NCBI GenBank assembly: GCA_002898235.1
Contig: BEIL01000001.1
Span: forward strand, 16,034-80,033
DNA from: a bacterium HR35
Lineage (GTDB): Bacteria; Patescibacteriota; Minisyncoccia; UBA6257; HR35
DNA length: 64,000 nucleotides
Direction: 5' to 3'
Within the stretch, counting starts at the first letter, position 1; the number at the start of each line of letters is the position of its first letter. Below are positions 20,323 to 52,480 of this stretch, piece by piece. A program made the translations under genes and the position numbers. The notes under the pieces were generated by a model, which worked only from the letters and a program-made list of their open reading frames with translations, searched no databases and was not told the DNA's origin.

Positions 20323-20326
20323 GAGG

Positions 20327-20791
20327 ATGAGCGAGGTTTTAAAAATAATTTTAAATAGTATCTTGCCATCTGTTTTGCTTTTTATATTATATAAATTTTT
20401 TGAAGAATTTATTTTAAAACCGTATCTAGAATATAAAAAAATACTAGCTAAAGTTGATCATTATTTAAAGTTTTATAATAATATAATTTTTAATATTAAT
20501 CCTCCTAACAGAATTAAAGCATATGAACCATTGCCTGAAGATTGGATAAAAGCAAAAGAAACATTTAGAAATTTATCGTGTGAGTTAGAATCTCATTATA
20601 AATCTATGATATGTAAATTATTTTTACCTAAAAAGGAGAATATATATACTTCAATAAAAGACTTGATGATATTATCAAATATAATCGGCATAGCCAATGA
20701 TTACAAAGGAAATTACCAAGAAAAAGCAATTCGATTAGAAGAGGAAATTAGGCGTTGTTTAAAAATACCTCAAATAAATAATGAAAAATAA
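20327..20791 (+). CDS. hypothetical small membrane-anchored protein within the R-M locus
   Basis: 154 aa with an N-terminal TM helix and no recognisable motifs. Confidence 0.25.
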   Translation: MSEVLKIILNSILPSVLLFILYKFFEEFILKPYLEYKKILAKVDHYLKFYNNIIFNINPPNRIKAYEPLPEDWIKAKETFRNLSCELESHYKSMICKLFLPKKENIYTSIKDLMILSNIIGIANDYKGNYQEKAIRLEEEIRRCLKIPQINNEK

Positions 20792-21554: not shown

Positions 21555-21558
21555 AATT

Positions 21559-21662
21559 ATGAATATAAAACTTATTTTAAAAAACATAGCAGAAAATATT
21601 GATTTTAATAATCTTCCATCTAATTGGCAGGGTTTTGATTTTGAGAGATTTTCTAATAATTA
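21559..21662 (+). pseudogene. duplicated 5' fragment of the res gene (34-codon relic ORF)
   Basis: Encodes MNIKLILKNIAENIDFNNLPSNWQGFDFERF, versus the Res N-terminus MNLRLILKNIAENIDFNNLPSNWQSFDFEGF. About 58 consecutive identical nt and 90 nt of overall similarity to 23177-23266. Confidence 0.7.
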
Positions 21663-21702
21663 AAAAATAAAAAGATTCAAGCCCTTGTGTTAAAATTAAA
21701 AT

Positions 21703-22695: not shown

Positions 22696-23162
22696 TAACC
22701 TACGGCGAATGTAATACTGAATGTTTATTTTCTAAAGTTATTTTGGGACAAAAAGCAAAACATTTACAAGGTAAAGATAGAGTTGTTAAAAGGATAATGG
22801 ATGAGAATGGTGTATTGGGGATAATTGATTTAGATCCATCTAAACCTACAGGAAAATACTTAGAACAAATAAAGCGAATAGAACCTGTGTTTAATGAGAT
22901 TGATATAATTTTAAGAAAATTTAAATCTTCTTATTTGATTGAAATTTCTCCTTATTTTGAAGAATGGCTTGTAAATTTGTCAAGGAAAAGTAATGTGAGT
23001 CCAAAAGATTTTAATTTACCCGAAAATCCTAAAAAACTACACGAATTAATAAGCATTAAAGGAAGATTTGATAAATTAGAAGAAAGAATAGGAGGTCTTT
23101 TGGAAGCTATAATAAGCAAAAATAAAGAACACTTTAATAAATTAAAAAATAATATTAAATAA
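22692..23162 (+). CDS. AbiLii/RloB-like small protein (Toprim-like)
   Basis: N-terminus YGECNTECLF resembles the RloB cEGekTEpnYF motif, and GIIDLDP supplies a DxD. Translationally coupled to the ATPase (ATGA overlap). Confidence 0.4.
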   Translation: MITYGECNTECLFSKVILGQKAKHLQGKDRVVKRIMDENGVLGIIDLDPSKPTGKYLEQIKRIEPVFNEIDIILRKFKSSYLIEISPYFEEWLVNLSRKSNVSPKDFNLPENPKKLHELISIKGRFDKLEERIGGLLEAIISKNKEHFNKLKNNIK

Positions 23163-23176
23163 ATAAAATTTAATAA

Positions 23177-27187: not shown

Positions 27188-29182
27188 ATGAAAAAGAAAG
27201 TGTTTTTGCCTTTAATAATTTTATTAGGAATATTTGTTTTATTAATATTACAGAATTATGAAAATTTAAGTATCAAAGAAAAGTTGAATATTAAATTAAA
27301 AACAAGAGAAGCTCTTAAGATTTGCGATAATCTTTCAGAAGAACAAAAAGAAAGCTGTTATTGGAATCTTGCTAAATCTAAACAAAATTTATCGATTTGT
27401 GACAAGATTCAAAGAGAATGGATAAAAAATATCTGTTATTTGGATGTTGCTGAAGAAAAACAAGATTTATCTATTTGCGATAGAATACAGGATAAGACTA
27501 AAAAGGACTATTGTTATTTAAAAATTGCTGAGATGAAAAGGGACCCATCTATCTGTAACAAAATTCAAAATGAGGAAGAGGAAAGCTATGACGGAGATAA
27601 TAAGTATTTTAAAGATAATTGTTATTTAAAAATTGCACAAGCTAAACAAGATTTATCCATTTGTGATAGAATAAAGAATTCTTCCGTAAAAGATGATTGT
27701 TATAAATTACTTGCTATAATTAAACAAGATTTATCCATTTGTGATAAGTTATATTATTCAAATGAAAAAGACTATTGTTATTCAAGAGTTGCGCAAGTTA
27801 AACAAGATCCATCTATTTGCAATAAGATTGTTTGTAGTGAAATAAGTTCGTGGGATTGGTGTTTTAAAGATTTTTGTTATCAAAATATTGCTCAAACTAA
27901 AAAAGATGTATCTTTTTGTGAAAATATTAGAAATTTTTTATATGGAAAAAGTTTTTGCTATCAGGTAATAGGCGAAATTACTCAGAATTTATCTATTTGT
28001 GACAAAATTAGGGATGAAGAAAGAAGAGGATGGTGTTATCGATCAATTGCTGTTCTTCAACAAAATGCCTCTCTTTGCGAAAAGATAAACAATGAATACA
28101 TAAGAGATTATTGTTATTGGGACATTGCTTTAAATAATCAGAATCCACTTTTTTGTGAAAAATTGCACAATGAGAAAAATAAAAATCTTTGTTATTTAAA
28201 TGTTACCGAAGCTAAAAAAGAGACAAATTTATCAGAATATTCTAAGATAATTCAAAATTCGTTAGCAGATCAATTTATTGAAATAAGATTGGAAGATTTA
28301 AAAGAAGGGAAAAATAAGATAGGAGGTTTAACGATTGAACGAAAATTTATAACTACTTTAAGAGATGGATATAAGTTTATTATAAATAATTTAAAATATA
28401 TTATTAATTCAACAGGTTTAAACTGCGGTGCCTATCAATGTGGTGAAAGTTTTGAATTAAATATAGTAAAAAATGAAAACGATGATCAATCTCGAGTATT
28501 AAATTTCTGGATATCTGATTATGGAGGAGAAGTTTATTTTTTTAAATATCTAGATTTTATATATTTTATTGGAAGCACCATTGCAAAACCGAGAGGGCTT
28601 TGTTATCCTATTGAAGAGTCTATAATTTATTCAGCTTACAAAGATATGGTCGAAGATGAACAAGGTTTAAGACATACCCCATTATTAATAAAAAAGAATG
28701 GTAAGTTGTATCTTAAAGCAGAGAAAAATTTTTGTTATGAAGATTTTTGCGATTCAGTTTTAGAAAATATTGAGTCTTTAAAAAAAGAAGAGGATTTCTA
28801 TACACCTAAAAATCAGCGTTTTAGATGTTTTTGTTATGATTTTGACGAAACAGCACCCTGTGTTGATGAATATTATTTAATAGACAATGGCAAATTTATA
28901 GAAAGAAATCAAGATTTTAAATCAGAATATCTTGAAAAAGCAGAAAAATTTAAAAAAGAACTTCAGGAAAAACATTGGCAAAATGGTGATTGGATTTTGA
29001 CATTATTAAATAAAACACTAAACTTAATCTTTGCTGGTGAAGAAGAAAAGGCCTGGAGAGAATTTTTTGAAGATTTCCAGAGTCTTTCTCAAGCCTATCC
29101 TTTTGAAGGTATTGAAAAAATAAATCCTGATAAAATAAAAGAAGAAATTCAAAAAAATATAGCTAGAGAAAGTGGGTTTTGA
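27188..29182 (+). CDS. secreted protein with about 11 tandem roughly 30 aa Cys-containing repeats (LSICDKI...DYCY...A..KQD) plus a Cys-rich C-terminal domain
   Basis: Signal peptide. Repeats of the pattern KQ(D/N)LSICD(K/R)I(x7-9)(D/N)xCYxx(I/V)Axx between aa 40 and 330. Confidence 0.5.
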   Translation: MKKKVFLPLIILLGIFVLLILQNYENLSIKEKLNIKLKTREALKICDNLSEEQKESCYWNLAKSKQNLSICDKIQREWIKNICYLDVAEEKQDLSICDRIQDKTKKDYCYLKIAEMKRDPSICNKIQNEEEESYDGDNKYFKDNCYLKIAQAKQDLSICDRIKNSSVKDDCYKLLAIIKQDLSICDKLYYSNEKDYCYSRVAQVKQDPSICNKIVCSEISSWDWCFKDFCYQNIAQTKKDVSFCENIRNFLYGKSFCYQVIGEITQNLSICDKIRDEERRGWCYRSIAVLQQNASLCEKINNEYIRDYCYWDIALNNQNPLFCEKLHNEKNKNLCYLNVTEAKKETNLSEYSKIIQNSLADQFIEIRLEDLKEGKNKIGGLTIERKFITTLRDGYKFIINNLKYIINSTGLNCGAYQCGESFELNIVKNENDDQSRVLNFWISDYGGEVYFFKYLDFIYFIGSTIAKPRGLCYPIEESIIYSAYKDMVEDEQGLRHTPLLIKKNGKLYLKAEKNFCYEDFCDSVLENIESLKKEEDFYTPKNQRFRCFCYDFDETAPCVDEYYLIDNGKFIERNQDFKSEYLEKAEKFKKELQEKHWQNGDWILTLLNKTLNLIFAGEEEKAWREFFEDFQSLSQAYPFEGIEKINPDKIKEEIQKNIARESGF

Positions 29183-29746: not shown

Positions 29747-29818
29747 TGGGCGCAGGAGGATTTGAACCTCCGACCTCCTCGATGTGAACGAGGCGTTCTG
29801 CCACTGAACTATGCGCCC
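29747..29818 (-). tRNA. tRNA-Val (anticodon CAC)
   Basis: Reverse complement folds as a cloverleaf: acceptor GGGCGCA/TGCGCCC, D-stem GTTC/GAAC, anticodon stem CCTCG/CGAGG with loop TTCACAT, T-arm GGAGGTTCAAATCCTCC. Confidence 0.8.
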
Positions 29819-29866
29819 CTAAACATTTTTGTTTTTTTTGAATATCATTTAAAATATAAAATTGAA

Positions 29867-30556
29867 ATGATTACTTTAAAACCAGAAATAATTTTTGAAA
29901 ACGAATTTTTTAAACTATCTAATACTCTTTTAGCCGGTTTTATTACTGTTTTAATTTTAACAGCTTTTTCTTTGTTTTTTAAAGATAAACTAAAAGAAGA
30001 ACCATCAAAAATTCAGGTAATTATAGAAACTATTTTTGAATCAATTTATAATTTTTGGTACAATCTTACTGAGATTAAAAATCTTAAAATTTTTGCTTTT
30101 TGTTTTGCTTTCTTTATTTATATTCTATTGAGTAACTGGCTAGGTATTTTCCCTGGTTTTGGAAGCGTTTATCTTAAACACCATGAAGAAAAAATTCACC
30201 TTTTAAGGACTGCTTATTCTGATTTAAACATGACCTTAGCTTTATCTTTTATTTCAGTAGTTGGAATTAATTTAATAGCCTTATTTAAACAAGGCTTTCA
30301 TTATCTTAAAAAATTTCTAAACCCTATTGGAATCTTGGAATTAGTTTCTGAATTTTCTAAAATTATTTCTTTTAGTTTCAGACTTTTTGGCAATATTTTA
30401 GCTGGTGAGATTTTGATTTTAATTATTAATTTTATTTTACCCCTTTTAGCACCATTGCCTTTTATGTTTTTAGAAATTTTTGTTGGATTTGTTCAAGCTT
30501 TAATCTTCTTTACTTTAACTAGTATATTTTTGAAGGTCGCTTTAAGTGAACATTAA
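29867..30556 (+). CDS. atpB: F0F1 ATP synthase subunit a
   Basis: Multi-TM protein with FRLFGNILAGEILI (conserved Arg-containing helix). The start is taken at the Met downstream of the tRNA, because the track ORF at 29762 overlaps tRNA-Val. Confidence 0.8.
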   Translation: MITLKPEIIFENEFFKLSNTLLAGFITVLILTAFSLFFKDKLKEEPSKIQVIIETIFESIYNFWYNLTEIKNLKIFAFCFAFFIYILLSNWLGIFPGFGSVYLKHHEEKIHLLRTAYSDLNMTLALSFISVVGINLIALFKQGFHYLKKFLNPIGILELVSEFSKIISFSFRLFGNILAGEILILIINFILPLLAPLPFMFLEIFVGFVQALIFFTLTSIFLKVALSEH

Positions 30557-36323: not shown

Positions 36324-37604
36324 ATGAAAAAACAAATAGTAATTTTAGGAGGAGGATTTGGTGGTGTTTATACTTTAAAATATTTGCATAAATTTTTTCA
36401 TAAACGCGGACTAAGGCAGACTGAACGCGGACTTACGCAGACAAGTATTAAATTAGTATTGGTGAATAGAAAAAATTATTTTATTTTTACGCCCTTGCTT
36501 CATGAAGTTGTTACTGGTGGAGTTTCAATTGATAATGCTTTAGAACCAATAAGAGAAATTATTAAATGCTGTGATTTTGATTTTATTCATGGAGAAGTTG
36601 AGAAAATTAATTTAGAAAATAAAATTGTTTATATTAATAAAGAAAAAGAAAATTATAAAGTTAATTATGATTATTTAGTTATTGCTTTAGGTTCAAAAAC
36701 AAATTATTATAATATTCCCGGTGCTAAAGAATATACTTTTTCGTTAAAAACAATTGATGATGCTATCAGATTGAAAAATCATTTTGTTCATATGTTTGAA
36801 TTAGCGAGTATATCGCAGAGTGAAGCAGCGATTAATAAATATTTAACTTTTGTAATCGTTGGGGGAGGAGCAACTGGAGTTGAGCTTGCTGGTGAAATGA
36901 GTGATTTGTTTTATAAAACTTTTAGCAAATTTTACCCACCAGCTTTAATTTCTCAAGTTAAAATCATCTTAGTTGAAAAGGGTAAAGAATTGATTCCTCA
37001 ATTTTCTCCCAAATTAAGACAAAAAGCATTAGAAAGATTAAAAAAATTAAAAGTTGATGTTAGATTAGAAAGAGGAGTTGTTGAAGTTGGTGAAGATTTT
37101 ATTAAACTTGATGATGGTAATATTATTGAAACAAAAACAGTTATTTGGGCAGCAGGAGTTGAACCAAATTTACCAGAAATCATTGGCAATGTTGAAAAAG
37201 ACAGTAGAGGGAGATTGGTTTTGAATGAATATTTACAAGTAAAAAATTATAATGATGTTTTTGCTATTGGTGATGTTTGTTGTTTTATTCAGGATCAAAA
37301 ACCTTTACCTCAATTAGCTCAAGTTGCAGTTAGACAAGCAAAAACAGTTGCTTTAAATATTAAAAACTCAATTGAAAATAAACCATTAGAAAAGTTTATC
37401 TACAAGCACACAGGCGACTTAATTTCAGTTGGTAGATTTTATGCTCTGGGTGAAATTAAAGGAATTGAATTTTCAGGTTTAATCAGTTGGTTTATTTGGA
37501 AAGGAGTTTATTTAACTAAAATGATTTCCTTTAGGGATCAAGTAAAAACATTTATTGATTGGTTTTTAAACCTATTTTTACCAAGAGATATAACTGAACT
37601 CTAA
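36324..37604 (+). CDS. ndh: type II NADH dehydrogenase / FAD-dependent pyridine-nucleotide-disulfide oxidoreductase
   Basis: Two Rossmann motifs, VILGGGFGGVY and IVGGGATGVELAGE. Contains a roughly 14 aa atypical insert RGLRQTERGLTQTS just after the first motif. Confidence 0.75.
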   Translation: MKKQIVILGGGFGGVYTLKYLHKFFHKRGLRQTERGLTQTSIKLVLVNRKNYFIFTPLLHEVVTGGVSIDNALEPIREIIKCCDFDFIHGEVEKINLENKIVYINKEKENYKVNYDYLVIALGSKTNYYNIPGAKEYTFSLKTIDDAIRLKNHFVHMFELASISQSEAAINKYLTFVIVGGGATGVELAGEMSDLFYKTFSKFYPPALISQVKIILVEKGKELIPQFSPKLRQKALERLKKLKVDVRLERGVVEVGEDFIKLDDGNIIETKTVIWAAGVEPNLPEIIGNVEKDSRGRLVLNEYLQVKNYNDVFAIGDVCCFIQDQKPLPQLAQVAVRQAKTVALNIKNSIENKPLEKFIYKHTGDLISVGRFYALGEIKGIEFSGLISWFIWKGVYLTKMISFRDQVKTFIDWFLNLFLPRDITEL

Positions 37605-38457: not shown

Positions 38458-39363
38458 ATGGAGGGGTTAGTTCTCTTTAATAAACCAAGTGGTTTAACTT
38501 CAACACAAATTGTAAATTATTTTAAGAAAATAACCAAAAAGAAAGTAGGACATGGAGGGACCTTAGATCCTTTGGCTAATGGGCTTTTAATACTAGGAAT
38601 AGGAGAATTTACTAAAGAATTAACGAAGTTTTTAAAAGAAAGTACCAAAACCTATATAGCTGAGATTGTTTTAGGAGCAAAATCAAATACATATGATAAA
38701 GAAGGAAAAATTGAAGTTGTAAGCTCAAAAAAAGTAGAATTAGAAGAAATAGAAAAAACCTTAAATGAATTTTTAGGAGAAATAGAACAAAGCCCGCCGC
38801 CATTTTCAGCTGTTAAGATTAAAGGTAAGCCGGCTTATCAATATGCTCGCTTAAGAGAAAAGATTGATTTAAAACCAAGAAAAGTAAAGATTTATGAAAT
38901 TAGAATTATAAATTACAATTGGCCTAATCTTAAACTTGAATTAACAGTCTCTTCTGGAGCTTATATTAGGTCATTGGCTAATGATTTAGGAGAAAAATTG
39001 GGTGTTGGAGCTTATTTGAATGGTTTAGTTAGAACAAAAATCGATGAATTTAACTTAGACGAAGCTCTTACTTTTGAAGATTTGAAAAATAATTATCTGG
39101 AATTTTTAGCTAAAGTTTATGGACGAGTTCAGGGTGTTGGTTTTAGATTTTTTTGTTATAACTGGGCTAAAAATTTAAAAATTTTTGGTTATGCAAAAAA
39201 TTTAAATGATGGTAGCGTTGAAATTTTAGCTCAAGGCAGAGAAGAGAATTTGCAAAAATTTTTAGAAAAGATAAAACAAGGACCAAAATTAGCTAAAATT
39301 GAAAAACTCGAAGTTGTCTGGAGAAAAGCAAAAAATAAAGTTTTTAACTTTGAAACTCTTTAA
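38458..39363 (+). CDS. truB: tRNA pseudouridine(55) synthase TruB fused to a C-terminal acylphosphatase domain
   Basis: TruB motif GHGGTLDPLANGLLILGIG. The C-terminal 90 aa carry acylphosphatase signatures VYGRVQGVGFRFF and GYAKNLNDGSVEI. Confidence 0.8.
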   Translation: MEGLVLFNKPSGLTSTQIVNYFKKITKKKVGHGGTLDPLANGLLILGIGEFTKELTKFLKESTKTYIAEIVLGAKSNTYDKEGKIEVVSSKKVELEEIEKTLNEFLGEIEQSPPPFSAVKIKGKPAYQYARLREKIDLKPRKVKIYEIRIINYNWPNLKLELTVSSGAYIRSLANDLGEKLGVGAYLNGLVRTKIDEFNLDEALTFEDLKNNYLEFLAKVYGRVQGVGFRFFCYNWAKNLKIFGYAKNLNDGSVEILAQGREENLQKFLEKIKQGPKLAKIEKLEVVWRKAKNKVFNFETL

Positions 39364-39390
39364 AATAGTTTTATAATTTAATCAAGAAAA

Positions 39391-40254
39391 ATGATTGAGG
39401 AGTTACACGATAAAAAAGTAAAATTTTTAGAGGAAAAAGCAAACGAAATCCGACAATTAATTATTGATATGCTTTTAGAAGCAGGCTCTGGGCATTCTGC
39501 TGGACCATTGGGAATGGCTGATATTTTTTCAGCTTTTTATTTTCATATTTTGCGTCATGATCCCCAAAATCCTGATTGGCCTGATCGAGATAGATTAATT
39601 TTATCTAATGGTCATATTTGTCCTGTTCGTTATGCTGCTATGGCGCTTGCTGGTTATTTTCCAGTTGAAGAATTAAAAACATTAAGAAAAATTAATACTC
39701 GTCTTCAAGGCCATCCTCATCGAACAACACTTCCAGGAGTTGAAACTTCTTCTGGCCCTTTAGGTGAAGGAATTTCTCAAGCAATCGGCATTGCTTATGC
39801 TGGAATTTTAGATAAAAAAGATTATCATGTTTATTGTATTACTTCTGATGGCGAGCATCAAGAAGGAAATACTTGGGAAGCTTATATGTGGCTTGGTAAA
39901 AATCCTTTACCGAATTTAACAATTATTATTGATCGAAATTACATTCAAATTGATGGAGTAACAGAAGACGTTATGCCCCTTGAACCATTAAAACAAAAAT
40001 TAGAAGCTTTTGGTCTTCATGTTTTAGAAGTTGATGGTCATAATATCAGAGCTTTTGTTGATGCAGTTAGAACAGCAAGGTCAGAATGGAGAAGGACCTC
40101 GGTTATTATTGCTTATACAATTCCAGGTAAAGGAGTAAGTTTTATGGAAAAGAAATTTGAATGGCACGGCAAACCACCAAACAAAGAAGAAGCCAAAAAA
40201 GCCTTAGATGAACTAAGAACATTAGGAGGAAAAATAACTAGTGAGCATCAATAA
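39391..40254 (+). CDS. transketolase, N-terminal (TPP-binding) subunit of a split enzyme
   Basis: SGHSAGPLGMADIF, GPLGEGIS, and HQEGNTWEAY. 287 aa. Confidence 0.8.
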   Translation: MIEELHDKKVKFLEEKANEIRQLIIDMLLEAGSGHSAGPLGMADIFSAFYFHILRHDPQNPDWPDRDRLILSNGHICPVRYAAMALAGYFPVEELKTLRKINTRLQGHPHRTTLPGVETSSGPLGEGISQAIGIAYAGILDKKDYHVYCITSDGEHQEGNTWEAYMWLGKNPLPNLTIIIDRNYIQIDGVTEDVMPLEPLKQKLEAFGLHVLEVDGHNIRAFVDAVRTARSEWRRTSVIIAYTIPGKGVSFMEKKFEWHGKPPNKEEAKKALDELRTLGGKITSEHQ

Positions 40255-40267
40255 TTCAATAACATTA

Positions 40268-40311
40268 TAGTAATTCAATAGTAATACAATAGTAATACAG
40301 TAGTAATCAAA
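40268..40311. repeat. 11 bp tandem repeat, four copies (TAGTAAT[T/A]CA[A/G])
   Basis: tagtaattcaa tagtaatacaa tagtaatacag tagtaatcaaaa, directly after the tktN stop. Confidence 0.8.
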
Positions 40312-40342
40312 ATATTTTTTAGAAGTGGTAAAATTAAAATAA

Positions 40343-41632
40343 ATGAGTTGGCTTATGGAAAAAAAGTATATTTTGATAGTATTATTTTTGCTTTTCTTGG
40401 GGCTAGTTTTAATTAAGCAAACAAAAATTAGAGCAGAAATCGCTTATTTTTATCCTCAAAGTTGTTTAGGAAGTTTTATTAATCCTGAAAAAGCCCAAGG
40501 AAAGCCCGAAGTTGATAATCCTGATTTAATAAATGAATCAAATTCTGCTGTTTATTTAGGCGGTTTTAAAGAAATTTATTGTGGAAATTTTCAAGGACCA
40601 GAAGTACAAGGCGAAATAAAGAAAATAACATTACATTTTAATTGGATTGTTACTAAAGAAAGGAGAGAAGCAGTTCTAACTGAACCAACCTCAACAAACG
40701 ATTCAAATATTTTAGAAAAAATTATTCCTCCGAAAACAATAGAAATAATACCAGCAACTCCAACAACTGAAACAGCACCTTTACCAAATACCACTCCAAC
40801 ACCAGAAGCAACCTCGACACCTCAGTCATCTTTTAACACGGATTCACGCGGATTATTATTACACGGATATACACGGAAATTATTTAACCTAGATAAAAAT
40901 TATCTAGATATCTTATTTTGGTGGAAAACAACTTTTGCTGAAGAAATGGCAACACCAATAGAATCGACAACACCTACAACCTTAACAACAACTCCATCAG
41001 AAGCTCAAAATCAATCAACTGAAACTCAATCAATAATAATTACAACAACTCCTACATCTACAGAAAATCAAACCGAAACAACCTCTTCTACTACAAGTAC
41101 TGAAGCATTGACTACTCCAACAACCTCAGAAACAACTTCATTAACAACCTCAACTCCTCCTAAAACTCTATTTGAAGTCCATTACACTTTGGATGGTGAA
41201 AATTGGACTTATCTTGGAGATATTAAAACGCAGACTAACGCAGACAACACGCAGACTAACGCAGACAACTATTTTATTCCCGATGTTTCTTTTGAAATAC
41301 CAGTAAATAATTGGCTTGATATTTCAAAAATTCAAATAAAAATCAATTCTTTACCTGATACTGACTACTATCTTTATTTAGAATCAATGTGGTTTGAAGT
41401 TGAATATGAACTTCCGCAAGCAACATCAACTATTTCAGAAATAACAAATTTTGTTGGTGGCACTATAAGTTCTTTAACAGAAAATTTTTCTAATGATACT
41501 TCTACATTGTCAGAAACCTCAACATCTTATGGCGAAGATGATGAAGAAATTTTAACTCCAACAAATTTAGAAAATGCTACTCCTACTCCTCATTACCTCC
41601 TCTTAAACAAAGAAAATATACTAAAGAAATAA
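40343..41632 (+). CDS. secreted Thr/Ser/Pro-rich (mucin-like) surface protein
   Basis: N-terminal signal anchor and long T/S/P low-complexity linkers. Contains in-frame short repeats (40836-40878 and 41228-41269). Confidence 0.4.
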   Translation: MSWLMEKKYILIVLFLLFLGLVLIKQTKIRAEIAYFYPQSCLGSFINPEKAQGKPEVDNPDLINESNSAVYLGGFKEIYCGNFQGPEVQGEIKKITLHFNWIVTKERREAVLTEPTSTNDSNILEKIIPPKTIEIIPATPTTETAPLPNTTPTPEATSTPQSSFNTDSRGLLLHGYTRKLFNLDKNYLDILFWWKTTFAEEMATPIESTTPTTLTTTPSEAQNQSTETQSIIITTTPTSTENQTETTSSTTSTEALTTPTTSETTSLTTSTPPKTLFEVHYTLDGENWTYLGDIKTQTNADNTQTNADNYFIPDVSFEIPVNNWLDISKIQIKINSLPDTDYYLYLESMWFEVEYELPQATSTISEITNFVGGTISSLTENFSNDTSTLSETSTSYGEDDEEILTPTNLENATPTPHYLLLNKENILKK

Positions 41633-41988
41633 AAATTCAAAATCCTGACAATATTTCTTGTAAAATAGAGCCATTTTCAATTGAAGTTAAAGAAGAAGAA
41701 ACAAAAACAGCCAATTTAATAATTTCAGCAAATAACACAAAAAACATTGAAATCGGAAGCTTGCCTTCAGGAATAGACATTCAATTAGAAAATAATAATT
41801 ACGAAATGCAAACATCAAATAATTCAATTCAACTAAAAATATATCGTCAACAAGGTTCAGACAAAGGCAACTTCAATATTCCAATAATCCTTTCCTCAGG
41901 CAATTCAACAATAATTTGTCAAATGAATATCATAGCATTTTAGTAGCTAGTAGCTAGTAATTAGTATCTAGTAGCTAGTAGTAGTAAG

Positions 41989-42336
41989 ATGAAAACAAAA
42001 TCTTTTAAGGAATTAATAGTTTGGCAAAGAGCAAAAGAATTAGCAATAGAAGTATATAAATTAACATCAAAATTTCCAAAGTCAGAGCTTTTTGGATTAA
42101 CAAACCAAATGAGAAGAGCTTCAATTTCTATTTCTTCAAATATTGCTGAAAGTTATCATCGCTTCCATTCTAAAGAGAAAAAACAATTTTTAGCAGTTGC
42201 CTTTGGCTCTGGAGCAGAATTAGAAAGCCAAATTGAAATTGCTAAATCACTTTTTCCAAATTTAGATTATTCAAAAGTAGAAACATTACTTGCAGATATA
42301 ATGAAAATTTTAAATAAAATTATTAATAAAAAATGA
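41989..42336 (+). CDS. four-helix-bundle protein of the 23S rRNA intervening-sequence protein / Avd family
   Basis: WQRAKELAIEVYKLTSKFPKSELFGLTNQMRRASISISSNIAEG is the characteristic motif of this family. The stop overlaps the next start (ATGA). Confidence 0.7.
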   Translation: MKTKSFKELIVWQRAKELAIEVYKLTSKFPKSELFGLTNQMRRASISISSNIAESYHRFHSKEKKQFLAVAFGSGAELESQIEIAKSLFPNLDYSKVETLLADIMKILNKIINKK

Positions 42337-45300
42337 AAAAAAATCATCCAAAATTATCTACTAGATTCTACTTACTATCTACTAGATTCTTAGTTTTATT
42401 ACTTTTAATTTCAATGTTCTTTTTCGGTTATCCTGTTATTTGGAAAAATCCAAGAATACCACCAAAGATTAAGGAAGCACAGGCGGCAATTAGTTTTATT
42501 GGAAGCGTTGAAGGATCAGCAGCAAACGGCGGCGATGTCACGCTTAGCCTTTCCGGTCTTGGACTCCAAGAAGGCGACCTCGTCATCGTGGCCTATGCCA
42601 TTGGAGATAATGATAACGTGAATTTCAACATGGCAATACTATCGCCAGCTGGTTATACCGAGGTTGCCGACTTACATTCCGATGATACACAAGATGTTGA
42701 TCTCGGTGTTTACTGGAAAGTTATGGGAGCCACACCAGACACATCTGTTACGGTAGATGGTTTAGGAGGAACTGATGCTTCAGTGGCAGCAGTGGCAATG
42801 GCTTTCCGGGGTGTTGATCCCGCAACTCCAATGGATGTGATTCCAACTACGGCAACTGGCATTAATACTATGCATCCCAATCCCCCAGCAATAGACTATG
42901 TAAGCACCGGTGTCTGGACAGTTATTGCGGGAGCAAGTGGGCATGCGCTTAATTTAGCTAATACTAACAATCCCTATACTTTCCCATCAGGATATACAAC
43001 AGATAATGTTCAACGACCTGAAAATGATACAAGCGATGTGACAGTTGGATTGGGATACAGAACAAATCCCGCTGATCCCGAGGATCCTGGCGTTATGACA
43101 CACAGCGGAACTGACAGCACAAGTTACTCGTGGGCTGCAGTTACAATTGCTTTAAGACCCAAACCACCTTCTACTTTTAATCAATCAGCTTATAGATTTT
43201 TTAATAATCTTGATTCAACTGATGTTGGTTCTCCTTTAGCCAATCAAAATACTCCAGCAAGCTTAACTTCAGCTGGTCAAGCATTTAGATTGAGATTACT
43301 TATTCATGTAGGAACATCAAATCTGTTGGAAAATGAACAAAGTTTCAAACTTCAATTTGGTACCTCTACTGGTTCATCTTGTACTTCTTCACCACCTGCT
43401 TCTTGGGCTGATGTTACAACTTCAACACCAATAGCTTTTAATGACAACCCAACACCAGCTGATGGTGCTACTTTAACTGCTAATACTAATGACCCAACTC
43501 ATGGAGCTGATATTATTGTCAATCAAACCTATGAAGAATTAAATAATTTTACAAACTCTGTCTCTTCAATTAACGCTGGCGAAGATGGTAAATGGGACTT
43601 TTCATTAAAAGATAATGGTGCTCCAGCTGGTACTACTTATTGTTTAAGAGTTGTAAAAGCTGATGGAACTTTATTAGATACTTATTCAGTTATTCCTCAA
43701 ATTACAACCGCCGCAGCTCCAATTTTATCAGCTTATAGATTTTTTAATAATTTAGATTCAACTGATGTTGGTTCTCCTTTAGCTAATCAAGATACAGCTG
43801 CAACTTTAACTTCAGCTGGTCAAGCTTTTAGATTAAGACTTTTACTTCATTTACCCTCGGGTTTAAATTTCAATTCTCCCACTTCTTCAAATAATTTAAT
43901 AGAATCTGGATTAATTCCAGCTGGCTCTGGTGGTGGTAGAATTAGAATAGCTGCGCCTACTCCCAATAGATTATACTTGGTTTATTATGATATGACTAAT
44001 CTAGATTTAAGATTCTGTCGAAGTACTAATGGTGGAGTGAGTTGGAGTTGTAATGCAATTGAATCGACTGGTGATGTAGGCGTAACTCCGGATATTTATG
44101 CTCTTGATGAAAACAATATATTTATTACTCATAGAGATGCAACAAATGGTAATTTAAGATTTTGTAAAAGTAGTAATGGTGGTTTAAATTTTTCTTGTTC
44201 TATTCTTGAAGCTGGTTGGCAGGGGTTTGATTCTTCTATTAAAGCTATTTCAACTTCAACAATTTTTGTTTCTTACGCTCCAGCTCCAGCAAATTTTAGC
44301 TATTCAATTTTGAGATTTTGCCGAACAACTGATGGTGGTAACACCTGGAATTGCTCAGATGTTGAAGGAAATACAACAACTCAATATGGTTGGTATTCAT
44401 CTTTAGATGCAGTTGATTCTAATAATATTTATATTGCCCACTATGATGGGATCAATTTAGATTTAAGATTTTGTCGGACTTCAAACGGTGGAACAACTTG
44501 GAATTGTGGTGTAATTGAAACTACAGGTGATATAGGAAGAAAACCATCTATAAAAGCTTTTAACAATAATTATATTTATATAGCACATCGAGACGAAACA
44601 AATAATCAATTAAGATTTTGTCGAACTACAGATGGAGGAACTAGTTGGAATTGTAATGCAATAGAAATCGGAGGTTTTTCTTCTTCTTTAAAAATAGTTG
44701 ATAAAGATGTAGTTTATATAGCCCATTTTGATTTTACAAATGCTTCTATAAGACTTTGTAATACTAATAATGGTGGACAAACTTGGAGCTGTTCTACAAT
44801 TGCTAATGCTCCCCCTACTCTTACTTCTGGTGAAAATTTAAGTCTTTCTTTAGATTTACTTGATCCTTATATGATTTATGTAGCTTATGGTTTTACTACT
44901 GATTCTTCTAATGAGGTAAGATTGTATAAATATACAGGGAATGATTTTTTTAAACTTCAATATTCAGTTATGTCTGGAACTTGTGATACTTCATTTTCTG
45001 GTGAAGTTTATAATGATGTAGGTTTCGATACCCCTATTGCTTTTTATAATAATAACACTACAAGTGATGCCTCGACTCCAACTACTAACACCAATGATCC
45101 AACTCATGGTACTGATACAATTGTTTATCAAACTTATAAAGAAAAAAAATTTTTTACAAATAGAACGAACATTTTTTCGGGAAGTGATGGTTTATGGGAT
45201 TTTGTTTTGAGAGATAATAACGCTCCTTCAAATACAACTTATTGTTTAAGAGTTGTAAAAGCAGATGGAAGCTTACTTCAGGGTTACAATGTTATCCCTC

Positions 45301-45797
45301 AAATTACAACTGCAGCAGCTGCACCGATTACTTGTACTTTTTCAGCAACTTCAACTTCATTTTCAAGTTTATCTCCTTCAGCTGTTTCAACTTCTTCTCC
45401 TGATATAACTATTACTGTTACTTCTTCAGCTGGTTTTATAATTTCTGTAAATGATGCAGGTAATGGAACTAACCCAGGTCTTTATAAATCAACCTCGCCA
45501 ACATATCTAATTCCTTCTCCAAATTCTTCTTATACAGCAACTGCTACTTTAGTGGCTGGGGTAGATGGTTATGGAATTCAAGCAACAACTACAAATTCAA
45601 ATATAAGTATTAATCCAAGATACAATGTTAGTGGAGATACTGTTGGAGGACTAACTACAACAACTATTACTTTGGCAAGTTCTTCAGTTGCTGTTTCTTC
45701 GGCTCAAATTACAATTAAACATAAAGCAGCAGTTTCAAGTTTAGCACCAACAGGCAATTATCAAGATACAATAACATATAGCTGTACAAGTCCATAG
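42333..45797 (+). CDS. large surface protein with N-terminal signal anchor, a compositionally atypical N-terminal domain, duplicated YRFFNNLDSTDVGSPLANQ segments, a BNR/Asp-box beta-propeller and a C-terminal domain shared with the next gene
   Basis: Six BNR-like blades (LRFCRSTNGGVSWSC, LRFCKSSNGGLNFSC, LRFCRTTDGGNTWNC, LRFCRTSNGGTTWNC, LRFCRTTDGGTSWNC, IRLCNTNNGGQTWSC). 1154 aa. Confidence 0.55.
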   Translation: MKKNHPKLSTRFYLLSTRFLVLLLLISMFFFGYPVIWKNPRIPPKIKEAQAAISFIGSVEGSAANGGDVTLSLSGLGLQEGDLVIVAYAIGDNDNVNFNMAILSPAGYTEVADLHSDDTQDVDLGVYWKVMGATPDTSVTVDGLGGTDASVAAVAMAFRGVDPATPMDVIPTTATGINTMHPNPPAIDYVSTGVWTVIAGASGHALNLANTNNPYTFPSGYTTDNVQRPENDTSDVTVGLGYRTNPADPEDPGVMTHSGTDSTSYSWAAVTIALRPKPPSTFNQSAYRFFNNLDSTDVGSPLANQNTPASLTSAGQAFRLRLLIHVGTSNLLENEQSFKLQFGTSTGSSCTSSPPASWADVTTSTPIAFNDNPTPADGATLTANTNDPTHGADIIVNQTYEELNNFTNSVSSINAGEDGKWDFSLKDNGAPAGTTYCLRVVKADGTLLDTYSVIPQITTAAAPILSAYRFFNNLDSTDVGSPLANQDTAATLTSAGQAFRLRLLLHLPSGLNFNSPTSSNNLIESGLIPAGSGGGRIRIAAPTPNRLYLVYYDMTNLDLRFCRSTNGGVSWSCNAIESTGDVGVTPDIYALDENNIFITHRDATNGNLRFCKSSNGGLNFSCSILEAGWQGFDSSIKAISTSTIFVSYAPAPANFSYSILRFCRTTDGGNTWNCSDVEGNTTTQYGWYSSLDAVDSNNIYIAHYDGINLDLRFCRTSNGGTTWNCGVIETTGDIGRKPSIKAFNNNYIYIAHRDETNNQLRFCRTTDGGTSWNCNAIEIGGFSSSLKIVDKDVVYIAHFDFTNASIRLCNTNNGGQTWSCSTIANAPPTLTSGENLSLSLDLLDPYMIYVAYGFTTDSSNEVRLYKYTGNDFFKLQYSVMSGTCDTSFSGEVYNDVGFDTPIAFYNNNTTSDASTPTTNTNDPTHGTDTIVYQTYKEKKFFTNRTNIFSGSDGLWDFVLRDNNAPSNTTYCLRVVKADGSLLQGYNVIPQITTAAAAPITCTFSATSTSFSSLSPSAVSTSSPDITITVTSSAGFIISVNDAGNGTNPGLYKSTSPTYLIPSPNSSYTATATLVAGVDGYGIQATTTNSNISINPRYNVSGDTVGGLTTTTITLASSSVAVSSAQITIKHKAAVSSLAPTGNYQDTITYSCTSP

Positions 45798-45957
45798 TTA
45801 GTAGCTAGTAATTAGTAATTAGTAACTAATAGTAATGCAATAAAAAAATTTTTTTGACAAAATATGATATAATTTTAGTAAAATAAGCTCGCCCTGTAGT
45901 GAAACGAATTTTCTACTACAGGGGTAGAAGGGTCGAAAATTAAATAAAAAAAATCAA

Positions 45958-46593
45958 ATGGAAAAGGAAAATCAAACACAAAATTTAATTCTTTTGATAG
46001 GCATATTTTTAACTATTTATTTTGTTTATGAACTTTTTATTCTACCATCAGGACTTTTAAGAGCACAAACTAATGTGACGGTTACAGCAACCGTAACAAC
46101 AACTGTAACTTGTAATCCTGCAACAACTACTACTAATTTTGGCACTATTGATGCAAGTGCTGTTTATACTTCTTCTCCTAATGTAATTACCACTGTTTCT
46201 TGTAATCCTGCAGCAGGATGTAATGTTACTATTAGGGATCAAGGTTCAGGAACTCAACCAGGTTTATGGAATTCAACAGCTTCTTATCTAATTCCTTCAC
46301 CAAATGCTTCTTTTTCAGCAACAGCAACTTTAGTAGCTGGAACAGAAGGTTATGGAATTCAAGCAACAACAACTTCAGCTGGCTCAGGAGGAACTCTTTC
46401 TTTAAATTCAAGATATGTTCAAACAGGAAATACTGTCGGAGGATTGACAACAACCACAATTCAATTAGCTTCTTCAACCGAGCCAGTAGCAAATAGAGAA
46501 ATTGTTGTTACTCATAAAGTAGCAATCTCAGGTTTAACCAGAGCAGGTAATTATCAAGACATAATTACATATAGCTGTGCAAGTAATTTTTAG
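45958..46593 (+). CDS. secreted paralog of the C-terminal domain of the preceding 1154 aa protein
   Basis: Signal anchor. About 60% aa identity to the last roughly 170 aa of ORF 42333-45797 (shared PGLWNST..YLIPSPN..ATATLVAG..GYGIQATTT..TVGGLTTTTI..GNYQDxITYSC). Confidence 0.45.
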   Translation: MEKENQTQNLILLIGIFLTIYFVYELFILPSGLLRAQTNVTVTATVTTTVTCNPATTTTNFGTIDASAVYTSSPNVITTVSCNPAAGCNVTIRDQGSGTQPGLWNSTASYLIPSPNASFSATATLVAGTEGYGIQATTTSAGSGGTLSLNSRYVQTGNTVGGLTTTTIQLASSTEPVANREIVVTHKVAISGLTRAGNYQDIITYSCASNF

Positions 46594-46655
46594 TATCTAG
46601 TAGTTAGAATTTAGTAAATAGCAATGAATCAAAAAAGTAAAGAAAAAAATTAAAA

Positions 46656-47534
46656 ATGAAAAAATATCTCTTATTTATTTTTTTACTAGCTTCTATTTTA
46701 TATTTACTAGTTACTAATTCTGTTTTTGCTTTAACTGTTGGACCTGCTAAATTAGAATTTACAACTGATCCGGGGCAAGTTTTAGAATTTAGTTTGTTTG
46801 TTAGAAATGATAGTGATTATGATTCTAAGTATCAAATTATTGTTGAAGGGTTTACTGAAGAAAATGGAGAAAGAAAATATATTACCAATCCGCCTGAAGC
46901 AAGTTGGGTTGAAGCACCAAAGGATATTTTTATTAAAGCCAAAGAAGATACAAATGTTCCTATAAAAATTAATGTTCCTAAAGATGCTCCGCCAGGAGGT
47001 CATTTTTTAGTTTTATGGGTAAGCACTAAACCTGAGGGAGGTCAGGTTGCAATTGTTACCAGAGTTGGAGCTTTAGTTTTTATTAATGTTTCAGGAAAGG
47101 CTATTTATAAGGCTTATATTAGTGAGCTAAAAGCACCAAAAATTGCTTTTGATTTTCCAGTAAAATTTTCTTATGTAATCAAAAATGAAGGCAACACCTA
47201 TATAACACCTAAAGGCAATATTGAAATTAAAAATATTTTCGGAAGATTAATTGCTGATTTGCCTATAAATCCAAGGGAATTACAGCTTTTACCCAATACC
47301 TCAAAAAATTTTGAACAAGAATGGAAAGCACCGTTTGCTTTTGGAATTTATAAAGCTATTTTTAATTTAGAATATGCCAATTCAAGAAACTCTTTGAATT
47401 ATTGGTTTGTTTTTATTCATCTTAAAGCATTAATTATTTTGATGATTATCTTTGTTTTTGTTGTTTTTGTTTTACCAAGATTAATTAAAAAATATAATGA
47501 ATGGGTAATTAAAAGATATATGCAAAATAAATGA
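46656..47534 (+). CDS. secreted beta-sandwich protein with C-terminal TM anchor
   Basis: Signal peptide, predicted beta-rich ectodomain, C-terminal hydrophobic helix followed by basic residues (LPRLIKKYNEW). Confidence 0.35.
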   Translation: MKKYLLFIFLLASILYLLVTNSVFALTVGPAKLEFTTDPGQVLEFSLFVRNDSDYDSKYQIIVEGFTEENGERKYITNPPEASWVEAPKDIFIKAKEDTNVPIKINVPKDAPPGGHFLVLWVSTKPEGGQVAIVTRVGALVFINVSGKAIYKAYISELKAPKIAFDFPVKFSYVIKNEGNTYITPKGNIEIKNIFGRLIADLPINPRELQLLPNTSKNFEQEWKAPFAFGIYKAIFNLEYANSRNSLNYWFVFIHLKALIILMIIFVFVVFVLPRLIKKYNEWVIKRYMQNK

Positions 47535-48581
47535 ATGAATTTAAAAAATTTTTTCAATGTTGTTTTAATAATTTTCTTCTCGTTTTTATTACTTTATGCT
47601 TTTAATTATTTAAAATCTGCAGGTGTAACTATTAAAGCTTTTGTGCCTGGAGTTTGTGGCAATAATCTTAAAGAACCAGGAGAAGAATGTGATGGTCCTG
47701 ATTTAGGAGGTCAAAGCTGCGTTTCTTTAGGTTATTCAGGAGGAACTTTGTCTTGTAATTCTAATTGTACTTTTAATGCTTCACAATGCACTATCTCCCC
47801 GCCAAGTGGAGGAGGCGGAGGCGGTGGAGCATATATACCTCCTTATGGAACAGTTATTCTTTCAGGAAGAGCCCAACCAAATTCTGATGTTACTTTAATT
47901 TCAGATGGCCAAATAAGAACAATTATCAAAGCTGATACTGATGGAAAATTTAAATTTACTCTTTCCAACCTAACCCCAGGCAATTATATTTTTACTTTAT
48001 ATGCTGAAGATACTGAGGGAAGAAGGACAAGCTTACATTCAGTTCCAGCAGTAGTTACCGCAGGTCTTACAATTGAAATAGGTAATATTTTTCTTTCACC
48101 AACAATTGATATTGATAAAATACAAGTTAAGCGTGGAGATATTTTAAGAATTTTTGGTCAAACAGCTCCTGATTCTAATGTTTTGATTGTTGTTTCTTCT
48201 GAAGAAGAATTATATTTTCAAACTCAAGCAGAAAAAGATGGAAGTTATTTATATGCCTTAGATACTACAATTTTAGATTATGGCCAGCATTTTACAAAAT
48301 CAAGATCAATTTTAGCCAATCAATTAGTTAGTTCTTTTTCAAAAGCTTTAGCATTTCAGGTTTCAACAACTTCGGTAGTTAAAAAACCAACAAAATGTCC
48401 ATTAAAAGGTGATTTAAACAATGATTGCAGAGTAAATTTGATTGATTTTTCAATTGCTGCTTATTGGTATAAAAGAAAATTAAGTCCAAATTTTGCTAAA
48501 ATTGAAAAAGAGAAATTAAACGGAGATGGAAAGGTCGATTTGGTTGATTTTAGTATTATGGCGTATTGGTGGACGGGATAA
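47535..48581 (+). CDS. dockerin-containing surface protein (N-terminal signal anchor, Cys-rich repeat, Gly linker, Ig-like region, C-terminal dockerin)
   Basis: Two dockerin-type Ca-binding segments, DLNNDCRVNLIDFSIAAYW and LNGDGKVDLVDFSIMAYW. A CGNNLKEPGEECDGPDLGGQSC Cys-rich repeat. Confidence 0.55.
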   Translation: MNLKNFFNVVLIIFFSFLLLYAFNYLKSAGVTIKAFVPGVCGNNLKEPGEECDGPDLGGQSCVSLGYSGGTLSCNSNCTFNASQCTISPPSGGGGGGGAYIPPYGTVILSGRAQPNSDVTLISDGQIRTIIKADTDGKFKFTLSNLTPGNYIFTLYAEDTEGRRTSLHSVPAVVTAGLTIEIGNIFLSPTIDIDKIQVKRGDILRIFGQTAPDSNVLIVVSSEEELYFQTQAEKDGSYLYALDTTILDYGQHFTKSRSILANQLVSSFSKALAFQVSTTSVVKKPTKCPLKGDLNNDCRVNLIDFSIAAYWYKRKLSPNFAKIEKEKLNGDGKVDLVDFSIMAYWWTG

Positions 48582-51322: not shown

Positions 51323-52480
51323 ATGCTTAATCCAGAATTAAAATTGAATCCAAAAATTTTTGATGAAGATATTGAGCAAAAGCCAATTAGAGATGGTTAT
51401 AGTGATGCTTTGGTTGAGCTTGGAGAAAAAAATCCTGATGTTGTTGTTTTAACTGCTGATTTAGCTGAATCAACCAGAGCTCATAAATTTGCCGAAAAAT
51501 TTCCTGAAAGATTTATTGAATGCGGAGTGGCTGAACAAAATATGGCTGGTATTGCTGCTGGTTTAGGTGTAAGTGGTAAAATTGCTTTTATTTCCTCTTA
51601 TGCAACTTTTTCTCCTGGCAAAAATTGGGAAACAATTAGAACAACAATAATTTATAATGATTCAAATGTAAAAATTGCCGGTCATCATTCAGGAATTGTT
51701 ACTGGTCCTGATGGTGCCACTCATCAAGCAACCGAAGATATAGCTATTATGAGATGCTTACCGAATGTTAGAATAATTTCTCCTTGTGACTTTTGGGAAG
51801 CAAAAAAAGCAACTTTATATTCAGCAGAAGTTTATGGTCCTTTTTATATTAGATATGTAAGAGATAAAACACCTATAATAACAACAGAAGAAACACCTTT
51901 TAGATTTGGAAAAATTGAAGAATTCTGGATACCAAACACAGACCATACACGGACTATACACGGACAGAACAGACAAAATAATAAGTCCGAACAGTCTGAG
52001 TCTAGTCCGAATCAGTCCGTGTTAAGTCCAAACAAGTCCGTGTCTAGTCCGAACAAGTCCGTGAGTATGCAGAATAACGCAGATAAAAATATAGTTGCTA
52101 TTTTTGCAACTGGACATCTAGTTTATCAGGCACTTTTGGCTGCTAAAGAATTAGAAGAGGAGGGAATAGATGTTTATGTTTTGAATGTTCATACAATAAA
52201 ACCACTTGATGTTGAAAAAATTTTTGAAATTGCAAAAAAAGTTAGAGGAATAGTTACTTTAGAAGACCACCAAGTTCAAGGAGGAATGGGAAGCGCAATT
52301 AGTGAAGCTTTAATGAATATTGATTTTCAAAAACAATATGGCCTTTTTTCTGTTCCTCCGATTAAATTTTTAGGACTTCAAAATACTTTTGGTGAATCGG
52401 GCAAACCCAATGAATTAATTCAAAAATATGGAATGGATAAAGAGGCAGTAAAAAAGGCGGTTTATGAGTTTCTTAAATGA
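51323..52480 (+). CDS. transketolase, C-terminal subunit of a split enzyme, with a roughly 50 aa low-complexity in-frame insertion
   Basis: Pyrimidine-binding and C-terminal transketolase domains (FIECGVAEQNMAGIAAG, GPDGATHQATEDIAIMR). Insertion PNTDHTRTIHGQNRQNNKSEQSESSPNQSVLSPNKSVSSPNKSVSMQNNADKN at nt 51935-52090. Confidence 0.8.
   Translation: MLNPELKLNPKIFDEDIEQKPIRDGYSDALVELGEKNPDVVVLTADLAESTRAHKFAEKFPERFIECGVAEQNMAGIAAGLGVSGKIAFISSYATFSPGKNWETIRTTIIYNDSNVKIAGHHSGIVTGPDGATHQATEDIAIMRCLPNVRIISPCDFWEAKKATLYSAEVYGPFYIRYVRDKTPIITTEETPFRFGKIEEFWIPNTDHTRTIHGQNRQNNKSEQSESSPNQSVLSPNKSVSSPNKSVSMQNNADKNIVAIFATGHLVYQALLAAKELEEEGIDVYVLNVHTIKPLDVEKIFEIAKKVRGIVTLEDHQVQGGMGSAISEALMNIDFQKQYGLFSVPPIKFLGLQNTFGESGKPNELIQKYGMDKEAVKKAVYEFLK

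Follow-up and report, generated by a model that had tools for sequence, protein, structure and literature searches.

A 64-kb stretch of the genome of bacterium HR35, referred to throughout as the window, contains five TAG-rich repeat arrays at the boundaries of protein genes. The two strongest of these arrays, inverted relative to each other, form the end arms of a 450-nt cassette around a gene for a four-helix-bundle protein, and the gene therefore sits in a unit resembling the intervening sequences (IVSs) found in 23S rRNA genes. We regard the locus as an IVS-like helix-bundle cassette with heptamer arms that lies, together with unpaired arrays from the same repeat family, among protein genes in a genome of the Patescibacteria. 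We put at about 0.6 the probability that the TAG arrays are intergenic heptanucleotide repeats, two of which form the arms of such a cassette. Confidence in the anatomy of the cassette and in its comparative pattern is high.

The repeats had been described in a sequence-only reading as a family of TAG-rich units of 35–50 bp. All five of its sites were recovered, but the repeats proved to be tandem arrays of much shorter units, 7 nt (TAGTANN) at four sites and 11 nt (TAGTAATACAA) at the site after tktN. Array calling with Tandem Repeats Finder (TRF) gave period 11 at 40267–40307 (unit ATAGTAATACA, 3.7 copies, 93 % matches) and period 7 at 41941–41986 (unit TAGTAGC, 6.7 copies), 45798–45825 (4 copies) and 46589–46616 (4 copies). 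The copy in reverse orientation, at 42357–42390, was called with period 10 and 68 % matches and still fits TAGTANNTAGTA on the minus strand. Matches to TAGTANNTAGTA numbered 11 in the window, compared with a mean of 0.07 and a maximum of 1 in 100 dinucleotide-preserving shuffles, and all were confined to 41941–46716. This indicates that the arrays are not AT-rich low-complexity sequence. The array sites were the TAG-densest segments of the whole 64 kb, with 10, 7 and 6 TAGs per 40 nt.

The TAG stop codon of the preceding open reading frame (ORF) is the first TAG of the array at 41941, 45795 and 46591. All four plus-strand arrays contain stops in all three reading frames, while the reverse copy leaves the frame of ORF 42333 open and closes all three frames of the opposite strand. 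The proposal that these repeats mark gene boundaries holds for the five sites, which lie at gene ends or starts and all inside 6.4 kb of the window. It does not extend to the 46.7–51.3 kb part of the surrounding surface-protein island or to any other junction in the window, none of which has such an array. Likewise, the term insulator applies only narrowly, in that the arrays close three frames to ribosomes arriving from outside. The genes that precede the arrays at 45795 and 46591 have paralogous 3′ ends (D8/D9, spacing 781–793 nt), so these two arrays possibly have one origin and may not be independent. A scan of 39300–47600 found 27 promoter-like sites, with 34.7 expected from shuffles, and 5 terminator-like sites, with 4.1 expected. 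These numbers, below or near the shuffle level, indicate that the arrays are neither intrinsic terminators nor obvious promoters. Rfam at gathering thresholds identified only five tRNAs in the whole window, and no rRNA. The features are listed in Table 1. A sixth look-alike at 46684–46716 (minus strand; match at 46705–46716) was considered as an arm and rejected, as it is signal-peptide coding sequence conserved in the closest relative, L201.

Table 1. Arrays, cassette and adjoining genes, in window coordinates
Feature	Position	Strand	Remarks
Unpaired array, 11-nt unit TAGTAATACAA, 3.7 copies	40267–40311	+	Starts 13 nt past the stop of tktN (transketolase N-terminal gene); stops in three frames
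3′ end of upstream gene	41635–41943	+	Stop TAG at 41941–41943 is the first unit of the 5′ arm; L201 homology ends exactly at 41943
5′ arm, 6.7 units TAGTAGC/TAGTAAT/TAGTATC	41941–41987	+	Ends 1 nt ahead of the helix-bundle ATG
Four-helix-bundle gene, 115 aa, PF05635 23S_rRNA_IVP / TIGR02436	41989–42336	+	
3′ arm, heptamer family reversed	42355–42393	−	Within the 5′ end of ORF 42333, read as LSTRFYLLSTRF
Replaceable block (arm + gene + arm), 450 nt	41944–42393		blastn break points against L201
Surface-protein gene, BNR-like repeats	42333–45797	+	Frame crosses the 3′ arm ahead of the membrane anchor
Unpaired heptamer array TAGTAGC/TAGTAAT, last unit of 11-nt type TAGTAATGCAA	45795–45840	+	First TAG is the stop of ORF 42333
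Unpaired heptamer array	46589–46624	+	First TAG is the stop of ORF 45958; kept in L201

The strongest inverted repeat of the region 40000–47000 pairs 41942–41977 with 42355–42390 (36 nt, 83 % complementary, 377 nt apart). That these two arrays are the arms of the small gene had escaped the sequence-only reading. When 41920–42420 was folded as RNA, the arms were paired in both the minimum free energy (MFE) and the centroid structure, and the MFE structure of the cassette contained 31 flank-to-flank pairs. The protein encoded between the arms matches PF05635 (E 8.7e-32, 110 bits) and TIGR02436 ‘four helix bundle protein’ (110.6 bits, cut-off 24). It is 100 % identical to HRbin35_00060 of bacterium HR35 and has hundreds of Patescibacteria relatives at 70–78 % protein identity. 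The cassette is tightly interlocked with its neighbours: the 5′ arm provides the stop codon of the upstream gene and closes three frames, and the ATG of ORF 42333 overlaps the stop of the helix-bundle gene (ATGA). The reverse copy at the 5′ end of ORF 42333 is translated, as the sequence-only reading had stated, the ORF reading through the 3′ arm as LSTRFYLLSTRF before the membrane anchor.

The sequence-only reading had called this gene Avd-like, and the Avd proteins of diversity-generating retroelements (DGRs) belong to a homologous four-helix-bundle fold family (PMC10053308). If the gene were an Avd that serves to diversify the adjacent surface protein, the repeats would be part of that system. 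The protein has a weak similarity to bAvd (PF22296, E 6.9e-06), and the large surface protein next to it has internal repeats of 72–87 %. However, Pfam scans of every ORF of at least 90 aa found no reverse transcriptase in the window, 20 kb on either side included, and the Avd equivalog model NF033474 scored 24.3 bits where the cut-off is 80. The analysis identified no template/variable repeat pair, although it did not include a base-level comparison of the ORF 42333 repeats; a reverse transcriptase, absent here, would be needed for such mutagenesis in any event. We give this explanation next to no weight.

Five syntenic contigs were reached through homologues of the neighbouring large gene, ORF 42333, most homologue matches being at the domain level only. 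The closest relative is L201, from a Parcubacteria bin, in which the neighbouring 292-aa protein is 87 % identical. Homology between the window and L201 in blastn continues until 41943 and resumes from 42394, which are the outer edges of the arms. The block in between is 514 nt in L201 and contains another helix-bundle gene, with 31 % protein identity to that of the window, between inverted arrays of the 11-nt unit TAGTAATACAA, the unit of the unpaired array after tktN. L206 contains a third helix-bundle homologue, without BLAST similarity to the window protein and with heptamer arms of the AAAATNC type. At the same junction L204 and L205 have a RAYT-like Y1 transposase gene between GC-rich palindromes similar to repetitive extragenic palindromic (REP) sequences, and L203 has no insert, its surface protein beginning MDFDKFLKIFIVFLLVF. 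Since homology breaks at the outer arm edges and a different gene lies inside, arms and gene together behave as one discrete module that can be replaced as a whole. The junction, which encodes the cytoplasmic tail before the membrane anchor, tolerates several kinds of hairpin-bracketed selfish genes. The comparison of the island between relatives thus bore out the idea, put forward in the sequence-only reading, that the repeats lie at cassette junctions. The RAYT-like gene and GGGACGTGCGACGTCCC-type palindromes are located at 3300–4070 in L204 and 3260–4080 in L205 (4040–4060 in L206); one such palindrome is read as part of the surface protein, contributing SGRATS or GRATS to its N-terminal tail.

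Exchange of one segment as a block, together with arrays at gene boundaries in a variable surface-protein island, would also be expected if the arrays were attC-like sites of an integron-type cassette array; attC sites, too, border exchangeable units the size of a gene. This was one of the comparisons made in the sequence-only reading, which had also remarked that no integrase was seen; none was found here either, there being no tyrosine recombinase in the 64 kb. The arrays consist of tandem 7-nt units inverted around one small gene and not of a single imperfect palindrome at a cassette 3′ end. Two of the unpaired arrays self-fold no better than shuffles (z −0.42 after tktN and z +0.92 at 46589) and thus lack the single-stranded fold of attC sites, and the large surface genes flanking the cassette keep their order in all five relatives. 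An integron is therefore highly improbable.

The presence of RAYT-like genes at the same junction in L204 and L205 raises a different possibility, that the arrays are REP- or REPIN-like DNA hairpins and that a Y1 (RAYT-type) transposase from another part of the genome mobilises them in trans. In both systems a small gene lies between inverted hairpin repeats, and many gene-less copies are found in operon spacers; empty short-loop heptamer hairpins are common. REPs carry a conserved GTAG, which is also present in the TAGTAGC arrays, a likeness that is no more than a lead. However, when the RAYT-like proteins of L204 and L205 were used as tblastn queries, no Y1 transposase was found in the window or in 80 loci with related genes, and the Pfam scans likewise showed no transposase in the window. 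The arrays are tandem repeats of 7 nt, with no short GC-rich palindrome among them, and differ from the single imperfect palindromes of about 20–40 nt that make up REPs, of which the GGGACGTGCGACGTCCC palindromes of the relatives are an example and a different sequence family. Units differ from cassette to cassette within a genome, and this speaks against a single enzyme with sequence specificity. We know of no HUH or other catalytic motif in the helix-bundle protein. The REP-like character suggested in the sequence-only reading was not upheld, and mobilisation by a Y1 transposase is considered very unlikely.

To place the cassette in a wider context, 80 genomic loci encoding relatives of the helix-bundle protein, the best matches to one protein subfamily, were surveyed. 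An array of period 7, 14 or 21 was present within 100 nt upstream of the gene in 59 of 80 loci and downstream in 56 of 80, while arrays of period 5, 6, 8, 9, 10, 11 or 12 in the same flanks numbered 0–7. The two arrays of a locus are reverse complements of each other: in 49 of 73 loci, the inverted-repeat score between the locus's own flanks was above the 99th percentile of shuffles. Flank-to-flank pairs in the predicted MFE structure had a median of 26, compared with 6 in chimeric controls that joined the 5′ flank of one locus to the gene and 3′ flank of another. Units vary by locus (TAGAAAA, TAGAATC, TAGGATT, TAGCTTA, TAGTGAG, TAATGGT, CATGAAT and others). Two cassettes of one genome carry different units, yet the arms of each are complementary, and this co-variation of the arms is compensatory change at the level of the whole arm. 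The pattern was found in 31 of 43 Patescibacteria loci, in 9 of 15 from Bacteroidota, Balneolales and Ignavibacteria, and in some Acidobacteriota and Nitrospirota.

The arms in the survey are also asymmetric with respect to translation. Of 59 5′ arms, 45 had three-frame stops on the sense strand and 15 on the antisense strand, and the 3′ arm was a mirror image (sense, 8 of 55; antisense, 37 of 55). TAG comprised 174 of the 251 stops in arms, and TAGNNNN phasing was seen in 36 of 59 5′ arms, with the last four positions free and A-rich. In 34 of 46 loci the end of the upstream ORF falls within the array or adjoins it. Downstream of the cassette, the next ORF begins no more than 20 nt past the 3′ arm in 21 of 44 loci, and in 8 of 44 it reads through the arm. 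Several loci have a pyrimidine-rich arm that encodes a hydrophobic signal-peptide core such as FLFSIFYFLFS. In three loci (L025, 2983–4251; L026, 2986–4266; L030, 2980–4254) the helix-bundle frame itself seems continuous through the 3′ arm into the next gene; gene fusion, an overlooked stop or a sequencing error could each explain this.

In 46 loci the median distance from the array to the helix-bundle ATG was 10 nt, and a Shine–Dalgarno-like motif was missing in 36 of these. This spacing, with the arm ending 1 nt before the ATG in the window, and the three-frame stops would fit a role of the arrays as translation signals, in which stop pads and purine-rich sites for S1 or another factor drive re-initiation without a Shine–Dalgarno sequence. 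Such a role has been proposed for TAACTGA repeats, which end 1 nt before starts that rarely have a ribosome binding site (PMC4679880). However, the unpaired arrays of the window are 31–120 nt from the next start codon, and neither the mirror-image 3′ arm nor the block replacement is accounted for. Translation signalling is compatible with the cassette and does not exclude it; as the explanation of the arrays it appears quite unlikely.

The closest known parallel to the cassette is the IVS of the 23S rRNA gene of Coxiella burnetii, which encodes an S23p-family protein and has a terminal stem of 28 bp (PMC4990558). Its start codon is separated from a weak ribosome binding site by tandem heptamers (GACAGAT), at the first of which RNase III cleaves (PMC4990558). 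ORF-bearing IVSs, those of Coxiella and Leptospira, are viewed as selfish, horizontally moving elements (PMC4990558). The cassette shares with S23p-type IVSs a gene of about 115–125 aa of the S23p/PF05635 family in the loop of a long stem of terminal inverted repeats, a 5′ stem part made of tandem heptamers up to the start codon (here 6.7) and a poor or absent ribosome binding site. It differs in its location, between protein genes of an operon-like row and not in helix 45, 25 or 9 of 23S rRNA. Its arms are also TAGNNNN-phased and supply both a stop for the gene before and coding sequence for the gene after, and RNase III cleavage, demonstrated in Coxiella, is predicted for the cassette by analogy.

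By analogy with the IVSs of Coxiella and Leptospira, the arms would pair in a polycistronic transcript to form a stem of about 30–36 bp. RNase III would cut this stem, releasing a small, almost leaderless mRNA and uncoupling the flanking genes. The arrays would lengthen, shorten and homogenise by replication slippage, and the cassette may be moved or replaced through some recombination process. The stem and RNase III steps are proposed on the precedent of the Coxiella heptamer stem and its cleavage, and confidence in the RNase III step is moderate to low.

The arrays themselves resemble intergenic heptanucleotide repeats described in other bacteria: the TAACTGA repeats of Beggiatoaceae, cyanobacteria and Bacteroidetes, the GGGAATC/GGGGATT repeats of Xanthomonas and Nostoc and the Calothrix STRR family. 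All are tandem 7-nt units in two to tens of copies between co-oriented genes, and the arrays at 41941, 45798 and 46589 have at least three head-to-tail copies at, or no more than 50 nt from, the upstream stop. TAACTGA repeats leave no frame open, share sequence with upstream stops and can be translated when reversed (PMC4679880), while GGGAATC/GGGGATT repeats lie within 50 nt past stops on the sense strand and often form convergent pairs (PMC4692102). The same traits recur here: overlap with the upstream stop or an end a few nucleotides before a start that lacks a ribosome binding site, closure of all frames in the forward direction and translatability in reverse within or near the 5′ end of the next ORF. 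Frequent convergent (inverted) pairs are a trait shared with the Xanthomonas repeats. The differences are the unit, here TAGTANN, and the fact that one pair here delimits an exchangeable gene cassette. The four-helix-bundle family is unmentioned in the texts of PMC4679880 and PMC4692102, and no description of helix-bundle genes bracketed by heptamer arrays outside rRNA was found in the full-text literature searched, which was that of one library.

Three arrays of the window are unpaired. The array at 45795 is 81–82 % identical to the 5′ arm (D14/D15). The arrays after tktN and after ORF 42333 are missing in L204–L206, and at those junctions L201 and L203 have other repeat families (ACGAAT/ATTCGT and ACACGAAA); after ORF 42333 the relatives have a TGA or TAA stop with other repeats or none. 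The array at 46589, which follows a 211-aa gene (ORF 45958), is common only to L201, where it lies in an 82.5 %-identical block, and is absent from L204–L206. In contrast to the two arrays that fold like shuffles, the other arrays self-fold at z −2.1 and −2.5, only where CTAG palindromes occur. Among the arrays of the 80 loci and the window, 95 flank a helix-bundle gene, 65 are solo and 32 belong to inverted pairs of another kind, many of them short ‘empty’ hairpins. The empty heptamer hairpins that adjoin cassettes in L022 (881–1102 and 1983–2081), L056 (1361–1443) and L054 (2778–2919) have loops of 11–160 nt without an ORF and units unlike those of the cassette arms of the same locus.

The solo arrays are partnerless members of the same repeat family, inserted in particular lineages on or just after stops. 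Most likely they are half-elements or locally seeded copies. They would be tolerated at gene ends because the stop-rich orientation can survive only there. Confidence that they have any function is moderate to low.

Several results weigh against the reading of the arrays as heptanucleotide repeats with an IVS-like cassette among them. None of the three solo arrays has an inverted partner in the window; for the 11-nt array after tktN, no reverse-complement partner was found there. The cassette model gives these arrays no function. In a reciprocal test, a metagenome scan for TAGTANN repeated 3.4 times yielded 92 arrays with enough flanking sequence, on contigs of 31 to 73 % G+C. Only 2–3 of the 92 adjoined a helix-bundle gene, a count obtained with a hidden Markov model from one subfamily that could miss distant homologues, and 28 of 92 had an inverted partner, mostly with loops of 11–230 nt and no ORF; most loops are too short for a gene in any case. 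The whole-cassette fold energy was unexceptional (z −1.26). Mismatches in 60 arm alignments were compatible with G:U pairing in sense RNA in 62 cases and were of the strand-mirror A:C type in 60. Since there is no G:U bias, an inverted repeat acting at the DNA level (cruciform, hairpin-templated homogenisation) fits equally well. No RNase III gene was detected in the 64-kb window by the Pfam scans, and the phased conservation of TAG over other stops or triplets is not accounted for by the model. Finally, because the 80 loci are the best matches to one protein subfamily, the frequencies observed may not hold family-wide. The notion that every array is a cassette arm was dropped on the metagenome count; the arrays are instead a broader class with the helix-bundle gene as frequent but optional cargo.

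Some of the same observations would be expected if the arrays were neutral products of replication slippage, with selection acting only on where they persist: stop-rich after genes, or open within tolerant coding sequence such as N-terminal tails. Two solo arrays are unstructured and none of the three is paired, arrays are missing at the same junctions of L204–L206, and the junctions of the relatives hold other repeat families. Heptamers are over-represented in bacteria, slippage being the usual explanation (PMC4692102; PMC4679880), and MacGregor gives the same filtering argument for TAACTGA (PMC4679880). However, slippage leaves unaccounted for the inverted pairing around one gene family (49 of 73 loci), the co-variation of the two arms and the phased TAG followed by four free positions. 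The 11-nt unit common to a solo array of the window and the cassette arms of L201, and the retention of one solo array within an 82.5 %-identical block, also argue against it. Slippage with selective filtering is thus regarded as an unlikely explanation, although not a far-fetched one.

A broader extension of the cassette reading can be put forward only tentatively. Genes of PF05635/TIGR02436 with inverted heptamer arms may be widespread mobile cassettes at gene boundaries in many phyla, of which the 23S rRNA IVS would be the special case that was noticed first. Gene-less hairpins and solo arrays (STRR, TAACTGA and GGGAATC types) might then be non-autonomous relatives or footprints, and the protein a dedicated partner of the repeats that binds, processes or propagates them, as RAYT does for REPINs.

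Two puzzles that went unconnected for some thirty years, the nature of the S23p-coding IVS of 23S rRNA and the role of the abundant intergenic heptanucleotide repeats of cyanobacteria, Xanthomonas, Beggiatoaceae and others, are tied together by this locus and the 80 related ones, in which the same gene family typically lies between inverted heptamer arrays outside rRNA. If the cassette reading is correct, it offers a concrete object on which both questions can be tested, through the pairing of the arms, their cutting by RNase III and the affinity of the pentameric protein for the arms of its own cassette. It would also account for odd N-terminal peptides of annotated candidate phyla radiation (CPR) proteins, such as LSTRFYLLSTRF and FLFSIFYFLFS, and would warn annotators that repeat DNA supplies stops and start regions at such junctions. 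If the arrays are only neutral slippage products beside a passenger gene, a useful annotation rule would still result, of modest interest.

The region upstream of the 211-aa gene (45850–45957) contains a promoter-like TTGACA...TGATATAAT followed by a hairpin, CCCTGTAGTGAAAC...TTCTACTACAGGG, of which L201 has 2.3 tandem copies (8860–9024). The motif GGTCGAAATTAA directly before the ATG of this gene is kept in the window, L201 and L204–L206. The region has no Rfam match and is a possible leader RNA element.

The surface-protein island, of about 11 kb with cohesin, dockerin, Ig-like and BNR-like genes, lies between the two halves of a split transketolase, the N-terminal gene at 39391–40254 and the pyrimidine-binding/C-terminal gene at 51323–52480. 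In L204–L206 tktN is likewise directly to the left of the island. ORFs 40343–41632 and 41635–41943 look like one gene broken near 41630, as a single 617-aa ORF of L201 aligns to both; the break could mean that the gene is a pseudogene or is recoded, or that an A-run was misread in sequencing. A second, GC-richer class of tandem repeats was found in coding regions (36403–36442, 40836–40884, 41227–41269, 51931–51965 and 51983–52063), with periods of 10, 11 or 21 and units AACGCAGACT, ACACGGA.. and AAGTCCGAACAAGTCCGTGTC; L201 has related AGTCTGCGT arrays. In the inter-domain linker of the transketolase a pair of these arrays is mutually inverted and translated as HTRTIHG...SPNKSVSSPNKSV.

Elsewhere in the window, 17881–26044 is a defence-like cluster with an N6/N4 DNA methylase fusion, an AAA_15/AbiEii-like ATPase, a ResIII/SNF2-type helicase and several ORFs without Pfam matches. 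A 78-nt tandem repeat (27611–27828; 2.8 copies, 73 % matches) lies inside a 664-aa ORF that also has no Pfam match. The TTG start listed for the ATP synthase A-chain ORF (29762–30556) overlaps a tRNA-Val gene on the minus strand (29747–29818), so that the ORF probably begins further downstream.

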